This document shows positions 5,763 to 15,107 of a stretch of DNA of 64,000 nt, piece after piece (the stretch's first letter is position 1; each line of letters opens with the position of its first letter). The translations under genes were made by a program, and so were the position numbers. The stretch is from Candidatus Latescibacterota bacterium (GTDB lineage: Bacteria; Latescibacterota; UBA2968; UBA8231). The stretch covers positions 736,001 to 800,000 of the forward strand of contig CBDCXV010000011.1 in NCBI GenBank assembly GCA_965223905.1, read 5' to 3'. The notes under the pieces are model-generated. The model was not told where the DNA came from. It worked only from the letters and a program-made list of their open reading frames with translations, and did not search any database.

Positions 5763-6596
5763 TCATGCCGGCGTCAGGTGAGCGATCGTTTCGCAATGGG
5801 GTGTCTGGGGAAAGAGGTCGATCGGCTGAAGGGACGGTACTCGAAACCCGCCTTCGCAGAGAACCCTCGCGTCAGCGGCCAGGGACGTTGGGTTGCAGGA
5901 GACGTAACCGAGGGACGGGGGTCTCATTCCGATCAGGGCCCGCAGCACCGACTTGTAGATTCCCGCGCGTGGGGGGTCCGCGATCACGAGATCGAATCTC
6001 CTGTTTTCCGCCATCAGGACGGCGATCACCTTCTCAACACGGCCCGCCCTGAAGGTGCAGTTTCCCCCCGTTCCGTTCTTTTCGGCGTTTCTGCGGGCGT
6101 CGGCAACCGCCTCCTCGACCTGCTCGATTCAAATCACCCTGTCGGCCCGTTTTGCCAGGTGAAGGCTGATGCCTCCTGTCCCGCAGTAGAGGTCGAGGAC
6201 AGTGGCGCCGGTCAGATCACCCGCCAGCGCCAACGATCTGCTCGTACAGAACCGCTGCCTGACCGGTGTTGGTCTGGAAGAAGGCCGCTGAAATCTCGAA
6301 CCCGATCCCTCCGCAGACTTCCGAGATCCTGCCGCTTCCCTTGAGAACGAACTCCCGTTCTCCGATGGCGGCCTGGGCCTTTCCCCGGTGCAGGGTCACG
6401 ACAAAAGTCGTTATCTCCGGAACCCTTTCCAGGACACAGCGAACCAGGTCTCCGACTCCCTTGTCCGGGTACTCTGAGACAACCAGGTTCACCATCACCT
6501 CGCCGGGATTCCTGCCTTCCCGGACCACGCACGGTATCGAGAAGATCCGGTTCGACAGCTGCGACTGGAGACGGCAGTCGAGCACGTCGAAAATCC
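5763..6596 (-). pseudogene. rlmD: 23S rRNA m5U methyltransferase RlmD/RumA, C-terminal part (interrupted and frameshifted)
   Basis: FFQTN, DPPRAG, YVSCNP and DLFPQTPHCE motifs are spread over several frames. Continues from 14545-15006 across the insertion. Confidence 0.9.
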
Positions 6597-6630
6597 GGTA
6601 GTACGTCAGTTTGAAATCGAGTTATCCACA
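6597..6630 (+). repeat. Left terminal inverted repeat containing a DnaA box (TTATCCACA, 6622-6630)
   Basis: GGTAGTACGTCAGTTTGAAATCGAGTTATCCACA. Confidence 0.93.
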
Positions 6631-6671
6631 CCCCAGGAAGTGTAGTATTTACAGTAACATACCTTCCTTAA

Positions 6672-6754
6672 GGGGGCGCGGAGTCCTTGGGAGGATGGAT
6701 TGGTCTTGACTCCGTCCATCCTGTGTGCCAAGGGTCAAGATACTCCGCGCCCCC
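6672..6754 (+). ncRNA. Candidate pseudoknotted RNA, unit 1
   Basis: P1 6672-6684/6742-6754 (13 bp), P2 6685-6690/6728-6733, P3 6692-6699/6715-6722, loop 6703-6710 complementary to 6734-6741. The G-U pairs favour the plus strand. Confidence 0.6.
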
Positions 6755-6771
6755 AGCATTTCGGGGGACAA

Positions 6772-6848
6772 GGGAGCAGGGCCGGTTGTGTGGGAGCGAG
6801 CAGTCCGATGCAGCTCGCTCCGATAAACCATCGGATTGGCCCTGCCCC
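6772..6848 (+). ncRNA. Candidate pseudoknotted RNA, unit 2 (same topology as unit 1)
   Basis: P1 6776-6783/6838-6845, P2 6784-6787/6826-6829, P3 6793-6801/6813-6821, loop 6802-6809 complementary to 6830-6837. Confidence 0.6.
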
Positions 6849-6893
6849 CCACTTGACATTGCCAGCTTGCGCCTCCAACCACAGGAGGCAGAT

Positions 6894-7160
6894 ATGGAAA
6901 GCGGAAAGCTCAAACCAGGATGGCAGGAGGGCATCAAGAAGCTGATCGCAGAAGCAGACCGGCAGGAGGAACTAACTCCGGGTGACGGGGAGGATTTGAG
7001 AGGTGCCCCCCCCGCCTCCACGGGATTCGAGAGCGGCGATCCGGGAAACAGCGGATTCAAGGTCATTTCGGAGAGAACGGAGCGTCTTTTCAAACAACTG
7101 GAGCTGGGCTTCGAGCGCATCAATGCTCTCCGCAAGGCCAGGGGGCTCCCACCCGTCTAA
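6894..7160 (+). CDS. Hypothetical protein, 88 aa
   Basis: AGGAGG at 6883-6888 before the ATG and TTGACA at 6853-6858. Overlaps a convergent ORF. Confidence 0.5.
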   Translation: MESGKLKPGWQEGIKKLIAEADRQEELTPGDGEDLRGAPPASTGFESGDPGNSGFKVISERTERLFKQLELGFERINALRKARGLPPV

Positions 7161-7271
7161 GCGCATCAGTTTCTCCAGCTTTTGGGTTGCCTCTTCCACC
7201 TTAAGTGAGTTAGTGACAGGGGTGTTCAGATACTTTTGAAGCCTCTGTATTTCCTTGTCGAACTGCGCCAT
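6972..7271 (-). CDS. Hypothetical coiled-coil protein, 99 aa
   Basis: GGAG upstream of ATG 7271, strong heptad pattern, co-oriented with the transposase. Confidence 0.6.
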   Translation of the reverse strand: MAQFDKEIQRLQKYLNTPVTNSLKVEEATQKLEKLMRLDGWEPPGLAESIDALEAQLQLFEKTLRSLRNDLESAVSRIAALESRGGGGGTSQILPVTRS

Positions 7272-7290
7272 CGTGATTTTCTCCAAAGGG

Positions 7291-7587
7291 TTAGGCGGTG
7301 GCGATTTGCGGCCCCTGGCTGTTACGAGCAGCCGGGGCCGTGTCTATGTTCAGCATTTTTTTCAATTTCATATCTGTCTGTTTGTAATCTTGCACGGCAG
7401 ATCCATCTGCAATTGAGCCCGGCAGAGCTATTGGTATAGGGCTCCACTTGCCGCCACTGGTCCGATAGTCCCACATGGTTCCATCATCGCAAATCACGAT
7501 GTAGGAGCCATCAAAATGTCCACGCACCATTGCTACAGGCTTTCTGGGTTCCGGAACTGGGACTTCTTGTTGACTATCGTCACACAC
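7291..7587 (-). CDS. Hypothetical protein overlapping the transposase stop
   Basis: ORF track; the start overlaps the transposase 3' end, suggesting translational coupling. Confidence 0.5.
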   Translation of the reverse strand: MCDDSQQEVPVPEPRKPVAMVRGHFDGSYIVICDDGTMWDYRTSGGKWSPIPIALPGSIADGSAVQDYKQTDMKLKKMLNIDTAPAARNSQGPQIATA

Positions 7588-8470
7588 TTTCCTTCTCCAT
7601 TTTCCGGTAGGTTTTGGGACGATCTGGCTTGGGAGCCCTGTAGTCGATCAGGTCCAAGATCCAGCCTATGTCGTAGGGCCATTCGAAGATACCGGCTTTC
7701 ATGGCCGGGGTTTTTCCGTCCAAGCTCATGTGAGGGCGGATGAAGTTGTAGTACAGGAAGTAGAGGCTGCACATGTGAACGTGGTTCTGGAACTTCTTGC
7801 TGAATCCGTTGGTGCTTCGAGTGAACCGCCTCATTCCCATTCGCATGGTGAGGTTCTGACGTTCGACATGTGAGGTAGTGATGTGCTTGGGATCAGGATC
7901 ACCCTTTATCACCGATTTTTCGCTAGTGACTTCGATGGGGAGGGTAAATTTCCCATCTGGAGTATTCGTCGGATACTTGAAAGATTTCACAAGCTGGCTG
8001 TAGTCTACGAAGTTGCCGAAAGCCTTATCTACGGACTCTTGATAGGACCCCAAACCGTCAGTGGTCAGTTGCACTCGATAGGCAAGTCGACTCTGGAGGT
8101 CCTTCATGAACTTCTCGCCGGTTTCAATGGTGCGATCCCCGATCTGGTAAGAGACGATCAACTTACTTTTGGGATCTATGGCAGTCCAGGTCCAGATGTC
8201 CCCGGCAAAGGGAGGGGGATTCTTGGCCGTTTCGACGTTCTTCTTCTTGGCGTAGCAGAAAGCCCATATCTCATCGCACTGAATGCGCTTCGCCCTGACC
8301 ATGCGGACATTCCGGTCATGGAACTCGGCAGCGGCTTCTCCAGCGTCAACGAGCAGCTTCTTGACGGTGTTGAAGGAGCATCGGACAAGGCGGGCAGTGG
8401 CCTGCATCGAGTTGCCTTCTACTAGAAGATTCAGGACTTGCTCACGGTCTGACCTTGGGAGGGTTTTCAT
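7580..8470 (-). CDS. IS1-family DDE transposase (single ORF, N-terminal HTH)
   Basis: LVEGNSMQATARL HTH; IQCDEIW, WTWTAID, QLTTDG and TSHVERQNLTMRMGMRRFTR motifs typical of IS1-type transposases. Intact. Confidence 0.9.
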   Translation of the reverse strand: MKTLPRSDREQVLNLLVEGNSMQATARLVRCSFNTVKKLLVDAGEAAAEFHDRNVRMVRAKRIQCDEIWAFCYAKKKNVETAKNPPPFAGDIWTWTAIDPKSKLIVSYQIGDRTIETGEKFMKDLQSRLAYRVQLTTDGLGSYQESVDKAFGNFVDYSQLVKSFKYPTNTPDGKFTLPIEVTSEKSVIKGDPDPKHITTSHVERQNLTMRMGMRRFTRSTNGFSKKFQNHVHMCSLYFLYYNFIRPHMSLDGKTPAMKAGIFEWPYDIGWILDLIDYRAPKPDRPKTYRKMEKESV

Positions 8471-8510
8471 GCTTGCACAGTTCCTTCTTTGGGAGGGATT
8501 TCATACAAAT

Positions 8511-8539
8511 ATAGTACGAAAAAAACCGTGCAAAATCAA
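8511..8539 (-). promoter_or_regulatory. Sigma-70 promoter for the transposase
   Basis: TTGATT-N17-TACTAT on the minus strand, 40 bp upstream of the ATG. Confidence 0.6.
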
Positions 8540-8569
8540 CGTAATCCAGTTAAAAAACAACTATTTATG

Positions 8570-8605
8570 GCTTCAATGAGGCCGGGGTCCGAAGACCCCG
8601 GAAAG
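8570..8605 (-). CRISPR. Solitary CRISPR repeat unit, type I-G (I-U)-like; not an array
   Basis: Minus strand CTTTCCGGGGTCTTCGGACCCCGGCCTCATTGAAGC: 36 nt, 8-bp GC stem, 3' ATTGAAGC handle. No second copy seen. TATAAT at 8625-8630 upstream. Confidence 0.7.
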
Positions 8606-8758
8606 GCAATGGCAAGGAAAGGATATTATATACAATCTTACCCACGGAGACTGGTAAAGCCTACCGCTTCCGTCCTGATTCCTCCAGGTAGCATGTCATC
8701 TCCCTTCGCGAGCCCGATCCCTCACTCGCCTTCATCTAGGATCAGACCAAGCATTTGT

Positions 8759-8995
8759 CTACTCGCATCGAGCTTTGCAGGTATCGGCAGCTTTACCGGA
8801 CCGGGCAATACAGGCTCTCTTGTCACTGTCCCAAAACCGGGAAAAGCATACCGGTATACTGTCCTCGTAATCCTGCTGGCAATAACTGATACACCGCGCC
8901 TTAGCCTCTTCTGCGGAACAGGAGCTGGCAGGATTGGAACGGCTGCATCCATAGACCAACACAGCGGCCGCGATCAACAGCAGTGCGGGTGTCAT
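8759..8995 (-). CDS. Small cysteine-rich lipoprotein
   Basis: Signal peptide with lipobox VYGC followed by seven more Cys; AAGGAGG SD. Confidence 0.7.
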   Translation of the reverse strand: MTPALLLIAAAVLVYGCSRSNPASSCSAEEAKARCISYCQQDYEDSIPVCFSRFWDSDKRACIARSGKAADTCKARCE

Positions 8996-9037
8996 GCGAC
9001 CTCCTTGGTCAGCTGTCGGAAGCGTCTACGGCGGGGG

Positions 9038-9370
9038 TCAGTCACCGTACAAAATCGAAGGGTGGCCCCACTTTAGATCCCATCCTTTCGCGCCGACGAT
9101 ATAGCGGTGGAAAGAAACGCCCGGATCGGTTTTCGTAGCTGCTTGTAGATCATCAGCTTGGTTCTGCTCGTTGGGTGAATCCATAGTATCGACTTCAACG
9201 ATCCATATTTTGCCGTCCTTGTAGGCGACTATATCGGGAATTCTACCGTTGATAGATTTCGGAGTTGGATGCGTATCTATGTGGTCAGCTTCAACATCAC
9301 AACCTGCTTGCTCAAAAACCTCGACGATTTTGTCCACAGCCAAGTTGTGGACTGTCTGTTCCCATGCCAT
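9038..9370 (-). CDS. Small PD-(D/E)xK nuclease-fold protein
   Basis: RIPDIVAY...IWIVEVDT pattern; AAGGAG SD before ATG 9370. Confidence 0.6.
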   Translation of the reverse strand: MAWEQTVHNLAVDKIVEVFEQAGCDVEADHIDTHPTPKSINGRIPDIVAYKDGKIWIVEVDTMDSPNEQNQADDLQAATKTDPGVSFHRYIVGAKGWDLKWGHPSILYGD

Positions 9371-9487
9371 TCTGAAATCTCCTTTTCGGTCTGCATCAGA
9401 GTAAGGCACACCTGATGCCAGCTCATCGCAAGGCCGTAACTCCCTGTTTCCAGGGAGACCAAGCATTGTATCAGCAGCTTTCTATTG

Positions 9488-9679
9488 TCACTGTTCCATT
9501 TCTATGCGACTACTGTAAGGACTCCCCCACAGGCATACCGAGAGTAGAACCCAGATATACCAGTGACCGCTTGTGTGCTTCGGAGGATATTGCCGGCTGT
9601 AGGTGCGGTAGAGGTTCCACCACCCAACCGCTAAGGGGATCGTCAAGGCCAAGAGAAATGCACCTACATCCTTTCCCAT
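9488..9679 (-). CDS. Small two-TM membrane protein
   Basis: Two hydrophobic segments; lies directly downstream of 9699-9923. Confidence 0.5.
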   Translation of the reverse strand: MGKDVGAFLLALTIPLAVGWWNLYRTYSRQYPPKHTSGHWYIWVLLSVCLWGSPYSSRIEMEQ

Positions 9680-9698
9680 TTAACTACCGTTGGTTTTG

Positions 9699-9923
9699 TT
9701 ATGATTTTCCGTTTTGTTCATCATTGCGGTCGAGTTCTGATCCTACTTTGTTTCCCGCCAGTAACCCCAGTGCTCCCACTATCGCCCCTAGGGGAATCGT
9801 CGCCGGCGCAGCCCAGCCACCTGTAGCGATACCTATACCAGCCCCGATCTTGGCTCCAATAGCAGCGCCAGCGGCTGCTCCGCCTGCTGTTCCAACCAAT
9901 TCCTTTTTCCTTTTCTTCTTCAT
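9699..9923 (-). CDS. Glycine-zipper small membrane protein
   Basis: GxxxG repeats (GTAGGAAAGAAIGAKIGAGIG), basic N-terminus, AAGGAG SD. Confidence 0.7.
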   Translation of the reverse strand: MKKKRKKELVGTAGGAAAGAAIGAKIGAGIGIATGGWAAPATIPLGAIVGALGLLAGNKVGSELDRNDEQNGKS

Positions 9924-9950
9924 GTCCTGTCTCCTTTTTCTGTCTCTGCC

Positions 9951-10025
9951 AAAAAAAAGACCGCGCCGGGGTCTAACCTATCGCACCGAACTCCCCCGAA
10001 GCGGTTGGCGGCGAATCTCGCCGCA
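9951..10025 (-). terminator. Two hairpins followed by a U-tract
   Basis: GCGGCGA/TCGCCGC hairpin, then an ACCGC...GCGGT stem followed by a T-run on the minus strand, downstream of 10038-10217. Confidence 0.45.
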
Positions 10026-10037
10026 CGAAAAATTCCG

Positions 10038-10217
10038 TTACTTCTTTTTCCGACCCGAGCCGGATTTGCGGCCAGACTTCGGCTGATCCTCTTTAGCAGA
10101 GGTCCCGGTCACCGGGACCCTTACGTCTTCCTCTTCCCCGGTGGCGATGCGGCACACCTGCACCGCCAGTGCAATGGGGCTGGACGGTCGAACTTCGCCG
10201 TTAGGTCCTATGGGCAT
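10038..10217 (-). CDS. Small basic protein of the MPxGPxGExRP...RIATGE type, often found next to this IS1 subgroup
   Basis: MPIGPNGEVRPSSPIALAVQVCRIATGEEED plus a Lys/Arg tail. Family link is from recall, not a search. Confidence 0.65.
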   Translation of the reverse strand: MPIGPNGEVRPSSPIALAVQVCRIATGEEEDVRVPVTGTSAKEDQPKSGRKSGSGRKKK

Positions 10218-10303
10218 GATGCCATCCTTTCCGTTAAGGTGTAACGAACGATGCGGCATCGGATTGGGAATGTCAAGCTAATACTTCGATAATCATAGAG
10301 GGA

Positions 10304-10588
10304 TCACGGCGGAAAATCCGCGAGGGCTGCCCGGCGATTGGATAGGCTTTCTTCTCGGACGTCCTCAGCCCTCAGCGGTGCGTTCATGCGTTCCCGCAAG
10401 GCGGCTCCCAAGGCGGAAAGGGTGCGTTCCCGGTCGCCTTTGCGCAGAAGAGCGTGCAAAACCTCTTCGTTTGGCTTCGGGGATCGCAGTTCATCGGAAA
10501 TGGCCTTCGGCAGGGCTTCCTTCGCTCGGCCTTGTTGCCTTTGGGGTTCCATCCAGTTTGACGGTTTTGGCACGGGGTGTTCAGTCAT
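10304..10588 (-). CDS. Hypothetical protein
   Basis: ATGA overlap with the upstream ORF; AGGAG SD. Confidence 0.55.
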   Translation of the reverse strand: MTEHPVPKPSNWMEPQRQQGRAKEALPKAISDELRSPKPNEEVLHALLRKGDRERTLSALGAALRERMNAPLRAEDVREESLSNRRAALADFPP

Positions 10589-10839
10589 TTCTCCTGGTCA
10601 AAGGCAGTGTGGTATCTTTTTGTCAGCAGAACCACGTCCTTGAATGTGGGGAATATGAACCGTTTCGCCCGGCTATCTCCAGTAGCTGTCCAGCGGTTGA
10701 TTTCGAACCTGTTGCTCTCCCGGGATTTCAGGTGGTCGCCGTCCGGGTCCTGTGCGTGCGCTTGGAGTTGCAGGCCGACTTGGATGAGGTCGTGAGCCAT
10801 TTCGAGTAGTTCAGCCCGTAGGTCTTCCGCGTCAGACAT
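10585..10839 (-). CDS. Hypothetical protein
   Basis: ORF track; operon-like spacing. Confidence 0.55.
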   Translation of the reverse strand: MSDAEDLRAELLEMAHDLIQVGLQLQAHAQDPDGDHLKSRESNRFEINRWTATGDSRAKRFIFPTFKDVVLLTKRYHTAFDQEK

Positions 10840-10897
10840 TGGATTCTGTTCCCCTGTTCAGGTTTATTGGCCGTGCCGGGGGTCTGAGACAATACCG

Positions 10898-11149
10898 TTA
10901 CTTCGGATGGTTCTCCAAATGCTCGACGTGGTATTGCCGTAACTCCGTCAACTGGCCTTTGATTTCCGTAAGAGTTTGATCCGTGTTATTCTGACTGGCC
11001 TTGATCCGCTTGCCAATGGCCTTATGGGCTTTGTTGTTAGTTTTGTTGGTCGTCTTCAGCTCGCTTTTCAGGTTGTTGCGCAGTGCTGCATACAGGGCCA
11101 CAACAGCCAAGACAATGGTCCCAACGGCAATCCAGATTTCGGAAGTCAT
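10898..11149 (-). CDS. Small protein with N-terminal TM helix and coiled coil
   Basis: IWIAVGTIVLAVVALYAAL followed by a heptad pattern. Confidence 0.65.
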   Translation of the reverse strand: MTSEIWIAVGTIVLAVVALYAALRNNLKSELKTTNKTNNKAHKAIGKRIKASQNNTDQTLTEIKGQLTELRQYHVEHLENHPK

Positions 11150-11184
11150 GGGAGGGTCCTTCGTTGGGTTGGTTCAAAATTTCT

Positions 11185-11532
11185 TCACGTACCGGAGGTT
11201 CGGTCCCTGATTCGGTTCTTTGTCCTTCTATTGGCCCAAATGGACAATCCTGACAGCCCGCCACAGGCCAAGCCGAATAATCCCAAAAGAATCGCGCCCC
11301 CCCTAGATCCATGAGGAGTTACAAGAAGCGTCACCGAGGCGCCAAATGAAGCCGTGGCAATACCGATGCAGAACGTTCCCATCCACCCTATGGTTTCGAG
11401 ACCTTCGACCTCTTCTTCGGTCAGGGAATACATTCTAAGCGTTCTCGTTTCTTGGATGACATTGACGTTGTTAGCGGAGGATGGTGAAATCTCACCTCCG
11501 CCGCCCTTTTCAGACACTGAGTTCTTGCTCAT
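11185..11532 (-). CDS. Two-TM membrane protein
   Basis: Two C-terminal hydrophobic helices and a basic tail. Confidence 0.6.
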   Translation of the reverse strand: MSKNSVSEKGGGGEISPSSANNVNVIQETRTLRMYSLTEEEVEGLETIGWMGTFCIGIATASFGASVTLLVTPHGSRGGAILLGLFGLACGGLSGLSIWANRRTKNRIRDRTSGT

Positions 11533-11824
11533 GCTTTGAGTCGGAAATGGGTTTTCCCAGATTTTTAATCCCCATCACGACGGCACTGAAAATCCTGGTA
11601 AATCCACACTTCCCGCAATGGAGCAAGATGGCGGGGAAGCACACCCTTCCATGGGGGGACTGTGTTGTCCCGAGCGACGTAAGGCTCATTAAATGTGTAT
11701 TAATGAACCACCTGTTACTACGACATTGGGAACAATTGGGACTTATCCCATTGTCTTCCATCCATTCGTGTATTCTATCTATATCTTCTTCCGTTAGCTT
11801 ACCATCAGCCTCGGGCATTCTCAA
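11510..11824 (-). CDS. Zn-ribbon protein
   Basis: CSQC...CGKCG; AAGGAGG SD. Confidence 0.65.
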   Translation of the reverse strand: MRMPEADGKLTEEDIDRIHEWMEDNGISPNCSQCRSNRWFINTHLMSLTSLGTTQSPHGRVCFPAILLHCGKCGFTRIFSAVVMGIKNLGKPISDSKHEQELSV

Positions 11825-11879
11825 GCCTCCTTAGATGACCTTACGATGATCTTACAATGATCTCATTTCGCCGTTCTCC

Positions 11880-12017
11880 TCACTCCACTCCTGTTCTGCC
11901 ATCCAGGTGGCGGTCGAGGCGGTCGTTGTGACGGTCGATTCGGCTTCCAATGTCTCGCCAAAAGGCACCCAGAGCTGCCAGTACCACGAGCATGGGAATG
12001 ATTTCCGTCCAAGTCAC
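11880..12017 (-). CDS. 45-aa TM plus coiled-coil peptide
   Basis: Manual translation MTWTEIIPMLVVLAALGAFWRDIGSRIDRHNDRLDRHLDGRTGVE; GTG start after AAGGAGG. Not in the ORF track. Confidence 0.6.
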   Translation of the reverse strand: MTWTEIIPMLVVLAALGAFWRDIGSRIDRHNDRLDRHLDGRTGVE

Positions 12018-12039
12018 CTTGGGCCTCCTTCAGGAGGGA

Positions 12040-12309
12040 TCAGCTGCCGTTGACGGGTCCGGGAGTGGGGCATGGATCGAGCCGGCCTTCCACTCTATAC
12101 AACCCCTTTTCCACATAGTCAAGGCGCACATCGATGCGGGCCAGAGCCTTGCCCTGAGCAGACAGTTCCTACTGCATGGCGTTCATCCGGGTGTCCATCA
12201 GGTCCATTCTGGAACTCAGGCTGGAGCTGAATCCCCACTGGCTGCCGATGATGGCAACCAGAAGTCCCAAGAGCACCAGAACGTCCTTCCAGTTCAGTCT
12301 GCCGTTCAT
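12040..12309 (-). pseudogene. TM plus coiled-coil protein with an in-frame TAG at codon 47
   Basis: MNGRLNWKDVLVLLGLLVAIIGSQW...RMNAMQ*ELSAQGKALARIDVRLDYVEKGLYRVEGRL. The heptad pattern continues past the stop at 12169-12171. Confidence 0.55.
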
Positions 12310-12429
12310 CTTGGGCCTCCTTCAGGATAGGTGGTCTCCCACCGCTACCCTGAATTTCTCGCCATGAATAGGGAATGTCAAGCCAAAAACCGCTTGTGGA
12401 CGCCCGTGGGGTACTGTAAGGTATGAGCC

Positions 12430-12663
12430 GTCCGCTTCTCTACACGCAGGATCCGACTGAGGTCGGGTCTCCTGCTGAATGCAATAGCCAGTAGTAGAAC
12501 CCGGCCAAGGGGTCGCACCCCGAGGCAAGGCGAATAGGCAGGACTTTCCCGCGCGTTCCTGCGTGTCAGGGAGGTGGACAAGGCCCGGCACCCTTTTTTT
12601 CGGGGTGTCGTGGTGGCCGAAAAGTCCACCTCGAAACGCGGGAAATCGGTCGTGCAACACCCC
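12430..12663 (+). ncRNA. Candidate structured, switchable RNA (C4/CI antisense-like architecture)
   Basis: 22-bp stem 12430-12451/12557-12579 with 3 G-U pairs and one bulge, internal hairpins, and competing complements at 12624-12632 and 12637-12645. Putative promoter TTGTGG-N17-TAAGGT at 12394-12422. Confidence 0.55.
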
Positions 12664-12777
12664 TCCCAGAAGCATCTCAGTAGCTACAGATCCACCTGTT
12701 CGTCACTGTCTCAAGGGACGGTCCCGGTGTGCCATACCTGGACGGCTGTCCACCGGAAGGGGTTTGTCCACTCCTTC

Positions 12778-13335
12778 TTGCGGGAATGCCGTAGGCCGGG
12801 ACCGCTCTGCTTTTTTCTGTCGTGTCTGGTGCTGATCGGTTGCGCCAGAGACAGCAGCACCACTCCTGAATCTGCCCCCCCTGCGGAGTCAGTCTCCAGA
12901 CCAGATCCAGACGATCTGGACCTTTGGAGCTACGGTTACAACAGCAGCCAAAGGGTGCACATCTTGAGACACACCGCCACCTCAGAAGGGGTGGACTGCA
13001 CGATGTGGATTGAATGCAGGGGGACTCCCAGCTTCCCGGACTTGTATTTCTGGATTCCCAGAGGAGACTTCAATGGTTGGGGAGGCACACCTGGATACGA
13101 TGGGGATTGGCCAGATCAACCGGTCATAAACCTGACATGGGGAGAAGAAAATCCAGAACCTACCAAGATGAATTTGAGCAAGAACACCTTCACTTTTCAG
13201 GACCGGAAATGGAAGGACAAGATGATGTCGAACGACATCCTGTTGATGGAATTGCCGTGGGAACAATACGGCTCACTGTATTTCTATTTCGATCTCAGAG
13301 AAGGAAGACAACTCCTCAGCTACCACTGCTTATGA
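12778..13335 (+). CDS. Putative lipoprotein
   Basis: Basic then hydrophobic signal ending in lipobox LIGC, a Pro/Ser linker and a globular domain. Start uncertain (the ORF is open from 12574). Confidence 0.6.
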   Translation: MRECRRPGPLCFFLSCLVLIGCARDSSTTPESAPPAESVSRPDPDDLDLWSYGYNSSQRVHILRHTATSEGVDCTMWIECRGTPSFPDLYFWIPRGDFNGWGGTPGYDGDWPDQPVINLTWGEENPEPTKMNLSKNTFTFQDRKWKDKMMSNDILLMELPWEQYGSLYFYFDLREGRQLLSYHCL

Positions 13336-13368
13336 ACCACATCCATACCCCTCCCAAGGAGCAACTCG

Positions 13369-13524
13369 ATGACGCTTGCCAGTGAGCTGGTGAAGAAGCT
13401 GGAAGAAGAGCTGTCAGAGACTCAGAAAAAGCTCAAAGCAGAAGAGCAGAAGTCAGACAAATGGAAGAAGAAGGCAGGCGATAGATGGCAAGAGATTGAA
13501 CGTATGAAACGCAACTCGGGTTGA
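13369..13524 (+). CDS. 51-aa charged coiled-coil protein
   Basis: Manual translation MTLASELVKKLEEELSETQKKLKAEEQKSDKWKKKAGDRWQEIERMKRNSG; AAGGAG SD. Confidence 0.6.
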   Translation: MTLASELVKKLEEELSETQKKLKAEEQKSDKWKKKAGDRWQEIERMKRNSG

Positions 13525-13525
13525 C

Positions 13526-13783
13526 TCAATCTATCAGCAGACCGCAGCATTGAATTACAAAACCGAGGACCAAAACAGATACTCCGACCTTTGCTCTTCG
13601 AGAATCCTTGAGCAGTTGCTGGACCATTGGGAGCTTCATGTGGTCTTCCCTTGTCTCTCCTACCCATCGTGAAACTCCAAGCTCGATGGCCTTATCCCTG
13701 GACATGATAATGCCTGAACCCAAAATCACAGCTCCAACAATGTCCATCAGGAGACCAGCTACCTGAATTGATTCAGTAGACAT
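13526..13783 (-). CDS. Two-TM membrane protein
   Basis: Hydrophobic N- and C-terminal helices. Confidence 0.6.
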   Translation of the reverse strand: MSTESIQVAGLLMDIVGAVILGSGIIMSRDKAIELGVSRWVGETREDHMKLPMVQQLLKDSRRAKVGVSVLVLGFVIQCCGLLID

Positions 13784-13784
13784 G

Positions 13785-14289
13785 TCAACCGGTCTTCTGT
13801 TTGGGGTCGAAGTGGATTTCCTGCTTGTCCGTGGAGAGGAAGAGCTGGTCGAGGTACCGCAGTCTGGTGTTCACGGTAGGCGAGGGAGGCACCTGCACCT
13901 TGCCGGCATGAGACAGATCGGTCCGGGAGGTGTGAGCTTCCCGGTCGGTCAGGGCGACGATGTATTTCAGTCGGGCCATAGCAAGTGCTCCGGGAGTAGG
14001 ATGTAGACCGGTTCCTGATTCCAGAAATCGCCTAAGCCTGCAGCCATGTGGGCTTCCATAAGGGTACGAATACCTGTGGCAAGTTCGATATCCAGTGTGG
14101 GGTTGGCCAGAGATTCTCGACGCATATGGGCCATATGGCGCTCATGAGCTGAACGTCCCAAGAGAGGGGGGCAGGTCGACTTTTCGGCGTCGGATGTCTT
14201 CTTTCTTTGCTCGTCGTTTCAAGTCTGAGTAATTCCGTCCAGATTGGTGTTGATTTTTTTTCTCAGAATGGTATTTTTCAAGTGCCATT
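13785..14289 (-). pseudogene. Hypothetical gene(s), probably frameshifted
   Basis: Three short overlapping ORFs (14142-14289, 13967-14161, 13785-13979). The first junction lies next to a G7 run. AAGGAG SD before ATG 14289. Confidence 0.35.
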
Positions 14290-14476
14290 AGGCACTCCTT
14301 TCTTGAGAGGGAAGGAAACGAAAGCAAGGGACTGGAGATAGCCTATGCCAAGGCTTTCGGTCCCTTCTTTCATTTTGGGGTCAAAACGTCATCATGCTGG
14401 GCAATATACGTACTTTGTTCCCAAATCTCCAGGTTCAGCCACGGAATGTCCAGGACGAATCAGATATCCCTAAAAA

Positions 14477-14489
14477 AATCAACCATTTA
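14477..14489 (+). promoter_or_regulatory. IHF consensus site near the right end of the transposon
   Basis: AATCAACCATTTA matches WATCAANNNNTTR and is preceded by an A-tract. Confidence 0.55.
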
Positions 14490-14510
14490 CCTACTGTTTG
14501 TGGATAGAAT

Positions 14511-14544
14511 TGTGGATAACCCAGGTTCAGACTGACGTACTACC
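14511..14544 (-). repeat. Right terminal inverted repeat with a DnaA box (14511-14519); second 8/9 box at 14499-14507
   Basis: Reverse complement GGTAGTACGTCAGTCTGAACCTGGGTTATCCACA. Confidence 0.93.
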
Positions 14545-15006
14545 GAAAATCCGGTTGTAGCGACCGCGGTGGTGCAACCCCAGCAACGTGCCGCCTCCGC
14601 AATCCCTGCCGAAGAACTCCATCTTGTTGCGGTAGAAAAACGGGGCGCGACTCGCAATAATCGGCCTTTGCTCGTCGCAACGGAGACCCTGTTGCTCCAG
14701 TGCATTTTGCAACCATCCGTTCCTTCAATCGCAACTGGTCGCCGTAACGGAGGTCCTACCAGCGGCACCCGCCGCACCCCGAAGTTAGGGCATTCGGAGG
14801 CTACCCGGGGGATCGGGGTGCTCGTTATGCGGTCCGCAGTCGCCTCCCAGATTCTCCCTTTCCTCCTGCGCACGGTTCGCTTCCACACGATCCCCGGGCA
14901 GCGTCCGGCGAACGATGAACTCCGAGTCGTCGATCCTGGCCCAGCCGTCACCCTGGGCCGTTAACTCGCGGATATCTAGCTCAATCCTGTCTCCGCGTCT
15001 TGGCAC
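14545..15006 (-). pseudogene. rlmD: RlmD N-terminal part (TRAM domain, Fe-S region), frameshifted
   Basis: MPRRGDRIELDIRELTAQGDG...LPGDRV, CPNFG, YRNKMEF, spread over several frames. Confidence 0.9.
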
Positions 15007-15053
15007 TGGCCGAAACCGTTACGGTGCTGAATGATGGTGAACCGAGGTACATG

Positions 15054-15107
15054 AAAAAGCGAGGCGCACGAGATGATGCCATTTTCACCATCAAAAGCGC
15101 GCCTCGC
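15054..15107 (-). terminator. Intrinsic terminator after rplQ
   Basis: GCGAGGCGC/GCGCCTCGC stem with a T5 run on the minus strand. Confidence 0.5.

Follow-up and report, generated by a model that had tools for sequence, protein, structure and literature searches.

The question raised by this locus is what the 7,948 bp that interrupt an rlmD remnant are, and how they came to lie there. The segment occupies positions 6597-14544 of the window, the 64,000-nucleotide stretch of DNA from a sponge-associated bacterium that was analysed here, and it is an IS1-family cargo element. It is very probably a transporter IS (tIS) from a divergent branch of the IS1 family with a single-ORF transposase, moved whole into an rlmD gene that was already frameshifted. 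The first-pass annotation had described a single-transposase, IS1-family carrier of passengers, with which the ends, the match to PF03400, the empty site and the bridging contigs agree. The boundaries and the transposase are:

6589..6596, no strand: left copy of the target-site duplication (TSD), GAAAATCC, which occurs once in the G002, G001 and empty-site contigs
6597..6630, plus strand: left terminal inverted repeat (IR), GGTAGTACGTCAGTTTGAA...GTTATCCACA, from the inverted-pair search and the family matrix
7580..8470, minus strand: IS1-family DDE transposase, 296 aa, with an N-terminal HTH, from PF03400 and invariant columns
14511..14544, minus strand: right terminal IR, preceded by two TGTGGATA direct repeats
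14545..14552, no strand: right copy of the TSD, GAAAATCC, from sequence

The terminal IRs are the top inverted pair of the region; taken as 6596-6630 and 14511-14545, they measure 35 nt and are 86% complementary. The outer ends begin GGT, and the flanking direct repeat is exact over its 8 bp; both the exact TSD and the IRs of about 34 bp claimed in the annotation are thus present. With a position matrix trained on 136 family ends, the left and right ends score 27.6 and 16.6, and no internal site exceeds -7.7, about the window-wide 99.99th percentile (-8.4). The transposase matches Pfam DDE_Tnp_IS1 (PF03400) with 38.6 bits (cut-off 24.1) and NCBIfam NF033558, the IS1 equivalog, with 68.6 bits, under the cut-off of 100, a shortfall that counts against the explanation preferred here. 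Its candidate catalytic residues, taken from invariant columns of the alignment, are D66, D138 and E203. It is 62-40% identical to the transposases of its relatives, and homologues 52-54% identical carry the NCBI label 'IS1 family transposase'. Presumably it acts on the 35-nt ends of the element: it would recognise these terminal inverted repeats and mobilise everything that they enclose, and an 8-bp staggered cut in the target, once repaired, would give the GAAAATCC duplication. By this mechanism the 7,948-bp unit would have been inserted recently into an rlmD pseudogene. Pfam and NCBIfam scans of the element's ORFs found no integrase, resolvase or second transposase.

Comparison with sites that lack the element shows how it arrived. 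Relatives with an intact rlmD had been proposed as a check, and in G002 and G001, of the same genus, the flanks meet, overlapping by 8 bp, within an uninterrupted gene (a 456-aa open frame). Contigs from X3, X4 and the RNA library X10, which belong to three other studies, link 6587 to 14544, skipping 7,956 bases, with 0-1 flank differences. Because this precise empty site is found both in contigs of other studies and in two sister species, the element moved as one 7.9-kb unit, and recently. Contigs of run X1, short-read data possibly from the same sample as the window's assembly, span both junctions without a single difference (6324-8275 and 13812-14643); the absence of such reads had been named beforehand as grounds for doubt. 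The annotation had also held that removing the element restores rlmD. Colinearity is indeed restored, but an intact gene is not: the remnant carries indels of +1, -2 and +1 nt near 14878, 14778 and 14709, and 69 nt are absent near 6530. The X3 and X4 contigs, gapless over 14544-15100, show the three N-terminal frameshifts in element-free strains, and rlmD was therefore frameshifted in this species before the insertion. The element is present once in the genome and the exact W-type end pattern had 0 matches in metagenome contigs, so the evidence covers no repeated movement of the 7.9-kb form.

The element belongs to an abundant family, with at least 565 relatives counted in genome contigs and at least 580 in metagenome contigs. 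The family IR and an exact 8-bp TSD were found at 83 of 160 fetched loci (60/80, measuring 1,933-4,586 bp, and 23/80, measuring 2,346-5,000 bp) and at 5 of 9 relatives' loci; a second family element in the same genome measures 3,545 bp, with the TSD GATCCGCT. Altogether, 89 related elements with exact 8-bp TSDs span 1.9-5.0 kb. Homologues in ordinary 1-kb IS had been set in advance as the finding that would overturn the proposal; the loci with IRs and TSDs measure 1,933-5,000 bp instead. The canonical plan, typically 2-5 kb, runs from the left end through a small protein and a slot for variable cargo to the transposase, whose stop codon falls within IRR (read from the sequence of the relative L044). 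A profile search shows that the small protein, a basic, conserved and helical protein of about 75 aa, is encoded by 65 of 68 elements; its gene is usually on the transposase strand, 100-600 bp inside the left end. The protein matches no Pfam family, and Pfam and NCBIfam searches that included InsA's family gave no match; it may be an accessory or a regulator of transposition. Family cargo consists mostly of defence or toxin-antitoxin-like genes of normal size, so microproteins are not the class trait that the annotation took them to be, and the class is hardly under-described, being abundant and already annotated by NCBI as above.

The window element is the largest sampled, 1.6x the next among the 89 measured, and those relatives carry 1-4 kb of cargo against its roughly 7 kb in three compartments. 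It keeps the family core, from 10217 down to 7580, flanked by additional passengers, about 4.3 kb past the small protein and about 1 kb past the stop codon of the transposase. These extra passengers on both sides of the core place its working ends far outside their usual positions: 4,285 bp separate the small protein from the left end of the family plan (100-955 bp in 62 of 64 other carriers), and 983 bp separate the transposase stop from its right end (about 20-60 bp in most relatives). Since this layout is unlike that of at least 60 canonical relatives, part of the length may reflect capture in one event rather than piecewise accumulation. Two features bear on this history:

10038..10217, minus strand: 59-aa member of the family small protein, with 75 bits to the family profile and a deviating C-terminal tail
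10884..10896, minus strand: weak 13-nt match (12/13) to the family IR consensus from the matrix scan, possibly a relic of an inner left end

In one account of its origin, the element would have begun as a canonical core of about 3.3 kb, its inner left end near 10896, whose own ends decayed; the ends now used would come from a transposase-less relative that it entered, or from two fused copies, and the arms, 6597-7579 and 10897-14544, would be the other element's cargo. This account, which does not dispute the present movement as one unit, is plausible, although we incline against it. It would explain the displacement of the small protein and of the transposase stop. The 13-nt match has the GTC variant of the consensus, as opposed to the ACG variant of the outer ends, and by our own arithmetic about 0.01 such matches are expected by chance; however, it has no TSD and is poor over the full 26-nt matrix. 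Variants at least 90% identical occur on other public contigs for three core proteins only (the 78-aa lipoprotein, the 110-aa nuclease-like protein and the 59-aa small protein), while the right-arm ORFs found are clusters of one, and further non-canonical members are this genome's second element and L221 (5,000 bp). Against it, neither an inner right end nor an internal TSD was found, nor, inside the element, any trace of another transposase or small protein, and the subterminal motif GTTATCCACA, private to the two outer ends, is common to both, as for a co-evolved pair. As for a misassembled join to rlmD or an island placed by a site-specific recombinase, the single copy and the fall in GC from about 0.61 outside to 0.48-0.58 inside might suggest one, yet either is scarcely credible beside the error-free traversal of both junctions by short-read contigs (X1 possibly being the source sample), an empty site that complements the insertion exactly and recurs in contigs of three other studies and in two sister species, the family-typical IRs with an 8-bp TSD and the ORF scans that gave no integrase or resolvase.

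The cargo of this transporter IS, as we read it, was described as about 20 small ORFans:

6894..7160, plus strand: 88-aa ORF of the left arm, gene call on record, 39% identity over 89 aa to a G013 ORF
6972-7286, minus strand: antisense 104-aa coiled-coil ORF, 64% identity over 59 aa
7291..7587, minus strand: 98-aa ORF (79 aa in another call) directly after the transposase, whose stop codon it overlaps
8759..8995, minus strand: 78-aa lipoprotein candidate, lipobox LVYGC by eye, with a variant about 90% identical on another contig
9038..9370, minus strand: 110-aa PD-(D/E)xK-fold (AHJR-like) protein
9488-9679, minus strand: 63-aa hydrophobic ORF, open frame
9699-9923, minus strand: 74-aa glycine-zipper ORF, exact start absent from the record
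10304..10839, minus strand: 94-aa and 84-aa ORFs with an ATGA stop/start overlap, both gene calls and clusters of one
10898..12309, minus strand: right-arm ORFs of 83 aa (TM and coiled coil), 115 aa, 102 aa (CxxC...CxxC), 45 aa and 46 aa
12727..13524, plus strand: lipoprotein candidate of about 200 aa (start uncertain; LIGC lipobox by eye) and 51-aa charged ORF
13526..14327, minus strand: four tiled small ORFs of 85, 64, 64 and 61/48 aa, with only 13785-13979 a gene call

These are open frames, and 12 of the 20 ORF versions looked up are gene calls in the protein collection; the exact starts of the ORFs of about 200 aa and 51 aa are absent from the calls on record. ORF cover on the cargo strand is 0.81-0.83 against 0.70 +/- 0.07 in dinucleotide shuffles, so ORF statistics do not distinguish it from chance. 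The coding status is partly supported, and most of the small ORFs are presumably genes; the 88-aa and 104-aa ORFs overlap, and it is likely that one alone is real. The fold call on the 110-aa protein is solid, as the annotation had it; two further pieces of the cargo, the solitary CRISPR repeat and the covarying leader RNA described below, are solid as well. The annotation's two lipoproteins have lipoboxes seen by eye, and its glycine zipper is a weak lead to Gly-zipper_Omp (PF13488; E 0.0019, 18.5 bits, cut-off 25). The entry for the 63-aa and 74-aa ORFs (9488-9923) has a 57% identical paralogue at C11:1189622-1189753. The 98-aa ORF has no Pfam or NCBIfam match. The 45-aa and 46-aa ORFs are paralogous TM peptides with a common 22-nt upstream repeat, and the former is 47% identical to an ORF of element L046. 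An RNA-library contig is 100% identical over 11315-11559, and the second member of the 115-aa ORF's cluster is an alternative start in the same element.

The structured intergenic RNAs claimed for the element were also found, as palindromes, a covarying leader and a CRISPR-repeat hairpin:

6668-6758 and 6768-6852, no strand: two long imperfect palindromes just inside the left end, from folding
8570..8607, minus strand: solitary CRISPR repeat unit on the same strand as the transposase, 100 nt upstream of its ATG
12460..12592, plus strand: structured 5' leader RNA, model R1, upstream of the lipoprotein gene, from covariation

The palindrome region, 6668..6852, has one copy in the genome and fold z-scores of -5.2 (plus strand) and -6.4 (minus strand), with none of 200 shuffles equally stable. 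Model R1 has 29 pairs, 11 of them with compensatory changes, and its invariant U-G pairs fix the strand; the leader scores 105 bits with it and had no Rfam match at E <= 1. The solitary repeat is 34/36 identical to the 14 repeats of the host array C10:90933-92856 and scores 30.2 bits against Rfam CRISPR-DR16 (E 6.6e-4), under the gathering score of 35; no second repeat was found near it. It forms the same hairpin as the host repeats, with two differences, a G-U pair changed to G-C and a CUCG loop changed to UUCG (-17.0 vs -15.6 kcal/mol).

It stands close to an even chance that this repeat is a passive relic, either an array fragment acquired by recombination or capture, or a hairpin retained between cargo and transposase for termination or processing, with immunity unaffected. 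It lies at the boundary of cargo slot and transposase, where foreign DNA joins, and is unique among the sampled elements. The host array is itself disturbed, with a 968-bp gap that contains a degenerate repeat in reverse orientation together with a copy of the leader-RNA motif, so recombination around these repeats does happen. An unselected remnant, however, would not be expected to hold 34/36 positions with both changes improving the hairpin, when, on other contigs, versions of the adjacent core genes have already diverged by 5-10% (protein).

A more doubtful reading is that the repeat is an RNA anti-CRISPR (Racr), transcribed with the transposase or just upstream of it, which mimics the host repeat and ties up repeat-binding Cas proteins, probably of type I-G. 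Racrs were described as solitary repeat units that phages and plasmids carry (Camara-Wilpert et al. 2023, PMC10651486), and by SRUFinder-type criteria, as given in the parts of that paper drawn on here, the repeat has 94% identity and full coverage with the host repeat as reference, is intergenic and has no partial repeat within 100 bp. Like Racrs as described there, it is a lone near-host repeat on a mobile element in a CRISPR-Cas host. Among 76 family genomes, the repeat at no more than 3 mismatches occurs in this genome only (14 array copies and this one), and both differences stabilise its hairpin. Its stem is the same as that of the array adjoining type I-G cas genes (Cas7g, Cas5-6g, Cas3g, Cas1), and it has the sense orientation, with a 3' ATTGAAGC tag, shares its strand with the adjacent genes and has a TATAAT hexamer about 23 nt upstream. 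However, the -35 region is poor and a consensus promoter scan gave no minus-strand promoter at the repeat, the RNA-library contigs examined do not reach 8570-8607, and no host spacer matches the window element or its sister element. The repeat occurs in 0 of 67 other elements; a loose hairpin-plus-tag scan gave 4 matches, and the one inspected lies inside an ORF. Judged from its sequence, it is a candidate that departs from the Racrs in the portions of PMC10651486 cited, which are on viruses and plasmids: its carrier is a transposon, Pfam and NCBIfam scans recognised no known Acr family in its vicinity, and the array that it matches is an orphan, with no cas genes closer than 10 kb. The resemblance to anti-defence regions proposed in the annotation has its one concrete footing in this repeat, which the annotation had not noticed, and not in the microproteins, which have no detectable relatives, so that nothing ties them to host takeover.

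Classical IS1 is about 0.77 kb long, makes an 8-9 bp target duplication and encodes InsA and the frameshifted InsAB'. The window element shares with it the DDE_Tnp_IS1 domain, the GGT ends, an 8-bp duplication within that range and homologues that NCBI names IS1. It differs in its transposase, a single 296-aa ORF with its own HTH, in its 7,948 bp with about 7 kb of passengers, and in the small protein conserved across the family. The ISMhu11 subgroup of the IS1 family in ISfinder comprises elements of 900-4,600 bp, some with passenger genes; by this description it resembles the present family in being IS1-related, with a single long transposase and an upper size, about 4.6 kb, in line with the 1.9-5.0 kb measured here. 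The term tIS was given by the ISfinder authors to IS derivatives that carry passenger genes (PMC9330008), and, as far as the cited part of that work describes them, the element is alike in having one transposase, passengers within terminal IRs and no flanking IS copies. Tn7-like transposons with defence cargo (Benler et al. 2021, PMC8649781) resemble the family in cargo dominated by defence or toxin-antitoxin-like genes; going by the portion of that account used here, the window element is unlike them in having one DDE protein rather than TnsABC(D/E), a far smaller size and no att-site targeting.

What is unusual here is the size and layout of this member, not the class: the other family elements, 89 measured with 1-4 kb of cargo, match it in neither size nor gene number. 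If the family is the ISMhu11 subgroup, the window element lies 70% above the upper size of that subgroup. If the solitary repeat does act as an RNA anti-CRISPR, the element or its vehicle would be protected from CRISPR interference.

The element at 6597-14544 (7,948 bp) is bounded by the best inverted pair of the area, 6596-6630 with 14511-14545 (35 nt, 86% complementary), and by an exact 8-bp direct repeat, GAAAATCC, at 6589-6596 and 14545-14552. Both ends start GGTAGTACG..., and 89 relatives likewise have such ends and a target-site duplication (TSD) of 8 bp. GC content is about 0.61 in the flanks, compared with 0.48-0.58 within the element, and 0.63-0.65 in the genome contigs. In two same-genus genomes the flanks abut with an 8-bp overlap inside an uninterrupted rlmD (in G002 a frame of 456 aa), so the target octamer is present once there. 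Public short-read contigs were aligned to window 6100-15100. Those of metagenome run X1, possibly the sample from which the window was assembled, span both junctions, at 6324-8275 on the left and 13812-14643 on the right, with 0 differences. Contigs from three other studies (metagenome runs X3 and X4 and the RNA library X10) link 6587 to 14544, skipping 7,956 bases; these empty-site contigs have 12 ambiguous letters and 0-1 flank differences. Near-identical strains therefore exist with and without the element. The insertion proposed in the first-pass annotation is real, a misassembly is excluded, and in the recent history of the population the 7.9 kb was inserted or lost as one exact unit.

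In this species the target gene is a pseudogene whether or not the element is present:

5763-6596 and 14545-15006, minus strand: rlmD pseudogene, from comparison with G002 and the empty-site contigs

rlmD of the window genome differs from that of G002 by indels near 14878 (+1 nt), 14778 (-2 nt) and 14709 (+1 nt), a 69-nt loss near 6530, and a further +1 near 6234. This last change is private to the window genome, since X3 and X4 are without one base at 6230. The three frameshifts of the N-terminal third are common to the empty-site contigs, which are gap-free through 14544-15100; because strains free of the element have them, it must have landed in an rlmD already broken. The idea that removing the element restores rlmD thus survives as colinearity with the G002 gene but not as an open frame. 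An old insertion followed by decay of rlmD was dropped, the element-free strains having the same N-terminal frameshifts.

The only long open reading frame (ORF), 7580-8470 on the minus strand, encodes 296 aa with a DDE_Tnp_IS1 domain (Pfam PF03400, 38.6 bits against a cut-off of 24.1, E 1.7e-9) and weak HTH matches (Pfam) at the N-terminus. The best NCBIfam match is NF033558, the 'IS1 family transposase' equivalog, at 68.6 bits, below its cut-off of 100; RefSeq plasmids label homologues 'IS1 family transposase', with hypothetical proteins on either side. In ISfinder, inverted repeats (IRs) of the IS1 family begin GGT and target duplications are 8-9 bp, and the window element is alike in its domain, its GGT-type IRs and its 8-bp TSD. 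Classical IS1 has the InsA/InsAB' two-ORF arrangement with a programmed -1 frameshift, whereas the window transposase is a single uninterrupted ORF of 296 aa; the IS1 family accepts single-ORF subgroups. Judged by sequence, the transposase most probably belongs to a divergent IS1-family branch. D66, D138 and E203 are invariant in 8/8 aligned transposases and, in the motif contexts DEIW, TTD and ERxN, make up the candidate catalytic triad. Contig depth in three metagenomes was several-fold higher across 50 nt of the transposase gene surrounding the DEIW motif (window 8235-8285). The high-depth contigs carry unlike sequence on either side, and this stretch is common to many other IS1-like copies in those three communities.

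Neither a second transposase nor an internal IR was found in the element, so the two bracketing IS copies of a composite transposon are missing. Unit transposons of the Tn3/Tn7 type have resolvase or TnsABC-type proteins and a 5-bp TSD; no such domain was found among 22 ORFs scanned, and the TSD is 8 bp, not 5. No integrase was found in Pfam and NCBIfam scans of the element ORFs. The passengers (a PD-(D/E)xK protein, lipoprotein candidates, a CRISPR repeat and a leader RNA) lie between the IRs of one IS with a single transposase match and no flanking IS copies. This is the arrangement of a transporter IS (tIS), an IS carrying passenger genes as defined in PMC9330008. The observation is real and well bounded, and a passenger-carrying IS of the IS1 family is a kind known in principle.

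Insertion sequences are usually seen as 1-kb selfish units. Among the matches listed in a profile scan of one genome per species, more than 565 were relatives of this transposase, mostly in Alphaproteobacteria and also in Acidobacteriota, Latescibacterota, Nitrospirales, Desulfobacterota-type groups and Chitinophagales. An IR pair with an exact 8-bp TSD was found in 60 of the 80 genome loci kept (1,933-4,586 bp, median 3,182 bp). Metagenomes gave more than 580 relatives among the matches listed; 23 of 80 loci had an IR pair and TSD (2,346-5,000 bp), many of the 80 contigs being too short for both ends. Relatives in the same family and class have transposases 40-62% identical to that of the window, in elements that share the end GGTAGTGTCTCAGTTTGAA and measure 2,146-3,962 bp; five of nine such loci have an IR pair with an exact 8-bp TSD, one a pair without TSD and three no pair. 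It had been considered that the homologues might prove to sit in ordinary 1-kb IS. No TSD-bearing family member does, the 89 others measuring 1.9-5.0 kb, and the lone 936-bp IR-to-IR case is without TSD. At 7,948 bp, the window element is 1.6 times the largest of 89 other elements. Its exact end pattern had 0 matches in metagenome contigs, and the closest metagenome relative of its transposase among the matches listed is 57% identical, so no sister copy of the 7.9-kb form was found. The ISMhu11 subgroup of the IS1 family ranges from 900 to 4,600 bp; its name was not found in the literature searched. Literature searches on IS1-family passenger or defence cargo found nothing on this transposon family, and no description of its breadth, its conserved small protein or its cargo spectrum was found in the searchable literature.

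The window genome itself holds further traces of the family on its contigs C9, C10 and C11:

C10:298724-302268 (fetched locus L012, 2225-5769): second IS1-like element, 3,545 bp, 21-nt IR, TSD GATCCGCT
C10:1287164-1287598: degraded IS1-like copy, about 30 kb from the type I-G CRISPR-Cas locus
C9:758253, C10:1429319, C11:1442312 and C10:922457: solo family-type terminal repeats, no transposase match alongside in the own-genome search

The second element's transposase adjoins its left end and is 44-46% identical to that of the window; as cargo the element carries a lipoprotein candidate of 433 aa that contains an HELGH motif and lies behind the same leader RNA as in the window, plus repeated coiled-coil ORFs. 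The solo repeats were probably left behind by elements since lost.

When the element ORFs were compared all against all, one cargo-side protein proved common to most elements. This small protein, of about 75 aa, starts MPKGPxGExRPADVVGCAVHVAKIATGE and usually has a basic tail, GGKARA...EIAxKAAxARW. Its profile matches 65/68 elements, and it is absent from the second element at C10:298724-302268. The profile places it as follows:

Window 10038-10217, minus strand: small protein
L044:11385-11621 (fetched locus): small protein
L046:11242-11478 (fetched locus): small protein
At least 60 other loci: small protein

The usual place of the small protein is on the transposase strand, 100-600 bp in from the left end, and the transposase stop falls inside the right IR. 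In the protein collection it accounts for at least 7,489 clusters among 8,000 candidates scored; no Pfam domain is recorded in these clusters, and those that are named are mostly called 'hypothetical protein', apart from one 'RNA-binding protein' and a single cluster named as a dehydrogenase. The AlphaFold model has three helices (pLDDT 76.7), and a PDB fold search gave no match at E <= 10. A complex prediction with the transposase scored 0.01 and gives no verdict either way. From the near-universal linkage and fixed position alone, we infer that the small protein is a transposition accessory or regulator, a functional counterpart of InsA.

The window element is an extreme, oddly built member of this family. 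In transposase-strand orientation, 4.3 kb separate its small protein (10217-10038) from the left working end, compared with the usual few hundred bases, and 983 bp separate the transposase stop (7580) from the right working end; the usual place of this stop is inside the right IR. The core, from small protein to transposase, holds in order a glycine-zipper ORF (weak Pfam match, below cut-off), a 63-aa hydrophobic ORF, a 110-aa protein, a 78-aa lipoprotein candidate and the solitary CRISPR repeat. The arms outside it hold small ORFs of 45-115 aa, including a CxxC...CxxC protein and two paralogous membrane peptides, and a plus-strand island of leader RNA, an approximately 200-aa lipoprotein candidate and a 51-aa ORF. 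The peptides and their upstream repeats are:

11880-12017 and 12169-12309, minus strand: paralogous 45/46-aa peptides, TM helix and charged tail
12014-12035 and 12306-12327: repeats upstream of the peptides, 22 nt, 95% identical, containing GAAGGAGG

An element of another genus holds a peptide 47% identical to the 45-aa peptide. Just inside the left end are two adjacent imperfect palindromes of 85-91 nt, 6668-6758 and 6768-6852. Each occurs once in the genome and, whichever strand is folded, is far stabler than shuffled sequence; the pair might serve as a platform for transposase binding, as a terminator or as an RNA. It is plausible that a canonical core later acquired outer ends and arms. 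The search for internal ends gave only a 13-nt match (12/13) to the family consensus at 10884-10896, without TSD, and only three core proteins have variants at least 90% identical on other public contigs.

The many small cargo ORFs of the first-pass annotation hold up in part. On one side, 12 of the 20 small-ORF versions looked up are gene calls on record, and several follow a good Shine-Dalgarno sequence and tile or overlap with their neighbours at stop and start; on the other, ORF cover is not above shuffles, and codon-position GC likewise fails to separate the small ORFs from chance. Transposase aside, no match reached a curated cut-off among the cargo ORFs scanned (22 with Pfam, 15 with NCBIfam). 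Relatives are lacking for almost all of the small ORFs; they were found for the small protein, for the glycine zipper (a paralogue on the chromosome), for the 45-aa peptide (in one element) and for a left-arm ORF pair (homologues in the genome G013). Counts from a promoter and terminator scan of the element were not above shuffles. Cover of element parts in the RNA library was rejected as transcription, as its contigs do not show transcription.

The assignment of the 110-aa cargo protein to the PD-(D/E)xK group was borne out at the level of fold. Its Atlas neighbours are annotated AHJR-like (0.96-0.97). A word-indexed homology search returned only its own cluster and an exhaustive search 43 distant relatives; 16 of the 32 relatives aligned match PF18743, which the protein itself reaches at E 0.05. 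The AF2 model (pLDDT 81.6, pTM 0.76) has as best Foldseek matches the endonuclease domain of an R2 retrotransposon (E 6.8e-5) and archaeal Hjc resolvases. The protein is thus predicted to have the PD-(D/E)xK fold, the restriction-endonuclease-like alpha-beta-beta-beta-alpha-beta core. In the aligned relatives P45-D46 and E59 are invariant and E-V is followed by D or E and then T. Because the motif keeps PD and E with no conserved lysine, nuclease activity is uncertain.

Cargo was surveyed across the family by scanning 120 ORFs of at least 136 aa from 69 elements (fetched loci L054-L133 and L196-L275), of which 49 had a Pfam match at E <= 1e-6.

Pfam matches among cargo ORFs of the element family
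HTH plus Peptidase_M78 (ImmA/IrrE-type): 14 ORFs
P63C: 8 ORFs
Other HTH_3: 5 ORFs
nSTAND / AAA_16 ATPases: 4 ORFs
NYN: 3 ORFs
SocA_Panacea: 3 ORFs
AAA_15 / AAA_21: 2 ORFs
Single cases: 10 ORFs, including a methylase-HNH fusion, Fic, YhaV and proteases

By this census the family mainly shuttles defence and toxin-antitoxin-like genes, among them XRE-ImmA/IrrE fusions, STAND and OLD-like ATPases and Panacea antitoxins. The earlier view of microprotein cargo as a feature of the class was not sustained among ORFs of this size (49/120 matched), and the microprotein-rich cargo of the window element is atypical for its family.

A phylum-wide DNA search with the whole element gave recurrent matches to 12462-12605, which covariation resolves into an RNA motif:

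12460-12592, plus strand: leader RNA motif, about 125 nt

In the 14 copies that align, 11 of 29 pairs have compensatory changes, and invariant U-G pairs set the plus strand; Rfam gave no match at E <= 1. A covariance model found 15 copies in the window genome, including those at C10:301662-301785 (in the second element), at C10:91498-91633 (in the gap of an orphan CRISPR array) and in 12 more places, and matches in 61/151 genomes of the phylum. The genes 30-200 nt downstream of the copies, on the same strand, encode mostly lipoproteins, secreted or membrane proteins, and the copies are often carried inside IS1-like elements, those of relatives included. The motif resembles a cis-regulatory leader, specific to the lineage, that enters these transposons together with its gene.

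The newest feature of the element is a host-matched solitary CRISPR repeat on a simple transposon. Rfam marks 8570-8607 on the minus strand as a CRISPR repeat, below gathering score, and it is 34/36 identical, over its full length, to all 14 repeats of a host array. The host has several CRISPR-Cas loci; the array that matches the repeat, and the locus whose array repeat has its stem, are:

C10:90933-92856: orphan CRISPR array, 13+1 identical repeats
C10:1257400-1268300 (L151): type I-G CRISPR-Cas locus, Cas1 fusion, Cas3g, Cas5-6g and Cas7g

No cas genes lie within 10 kb of the orphan array. The type I-G array repeat has the same stem as the solitary repeat, but not the same 3' tag; beside this locus is PDC-M31A/B, a candidate system from PADLOC. 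In the orphan array the last repeat is preceded by a 968-bp gap, which contains a reversed degenerate repeat, a leader RNA copy and a 132-aa membrane-protein ORF. Integration of this gap as a cassette through the repeat was set aside, as copies of its first 120 nt flank the array on either side and also lie on contig C9, so the history of the array region is more complex.

The solitary repeat lies alone between genes (stop 8759, ATG 8470), sense on its neighbours' strand, and the transposase ATG follows 100 nt downstream. Its fold matches that of the host repeats (stem of 8 bp, loop of 4 nt, tail of 12 nt), and its two differences turn a G-U pair into G-C and the loop into UUCG. That it is a passive relic or processing hairpin has close to an even chance. 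That it acts as an RNA anti-CRISPR (Racr) is possible but rather unlikely. In PMC10651486, solitary repeat units (SRUs) act as RNA anti-CRISPRs on phages and plasmids, and SRUFinder asks for an identity and a coverage of 90% or more relative to a CRISPR repeat. The features of the window repeat fit the SRUs published there, since in identity and coverage it lies within these limits, has one match in the element and no full or partial repeat within 100 bp, and is intergenic. Against this role, RNA-library contigs do not cover the repeat, the promoter scan gave no convincing promoter, no host spacer matches the element, and no other sampled family member has the repeat. At <=3 mismatches it was found in the window genome only among 76 genomes of its family; one same-family genome has an array of about 89% similar repeats. 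It is more doubtful still that the element is armed against host adaptive immunity, a small RNA made from its hairpin-improved copy of the host repeat soaking up the repeat-binding Cas proteins and the orphan microproteins including further anti-defence factors. Were it so, RNA anti-CRISPRs would also ride simple DDE transposons, beyond phages and plasmids.

Here the passengers, 7 kb in all, are very probably moved by one simple transposase of the IS1 type, whose relatives make up a very large family that has drawn little notice (more than 1,100 matches among those listed). The family spans Alphaproteobacteria, Acidobacteriota, Nitrospirales and others and shuttles defence or toxin-antitoxin-like genes beside a conserved, unnamed 75-aa protein. 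The leads that follow are the cargo length to which one DDE transposase can stretch, the role of the small protein in transposition, and whether the cargo of a transposon can include an RNA anti-CRISPR directed against the transposon's own host. Presence and absence of the element among near-identical strains is a natural experiment, and the comparison is possible within sponge-associated communities.
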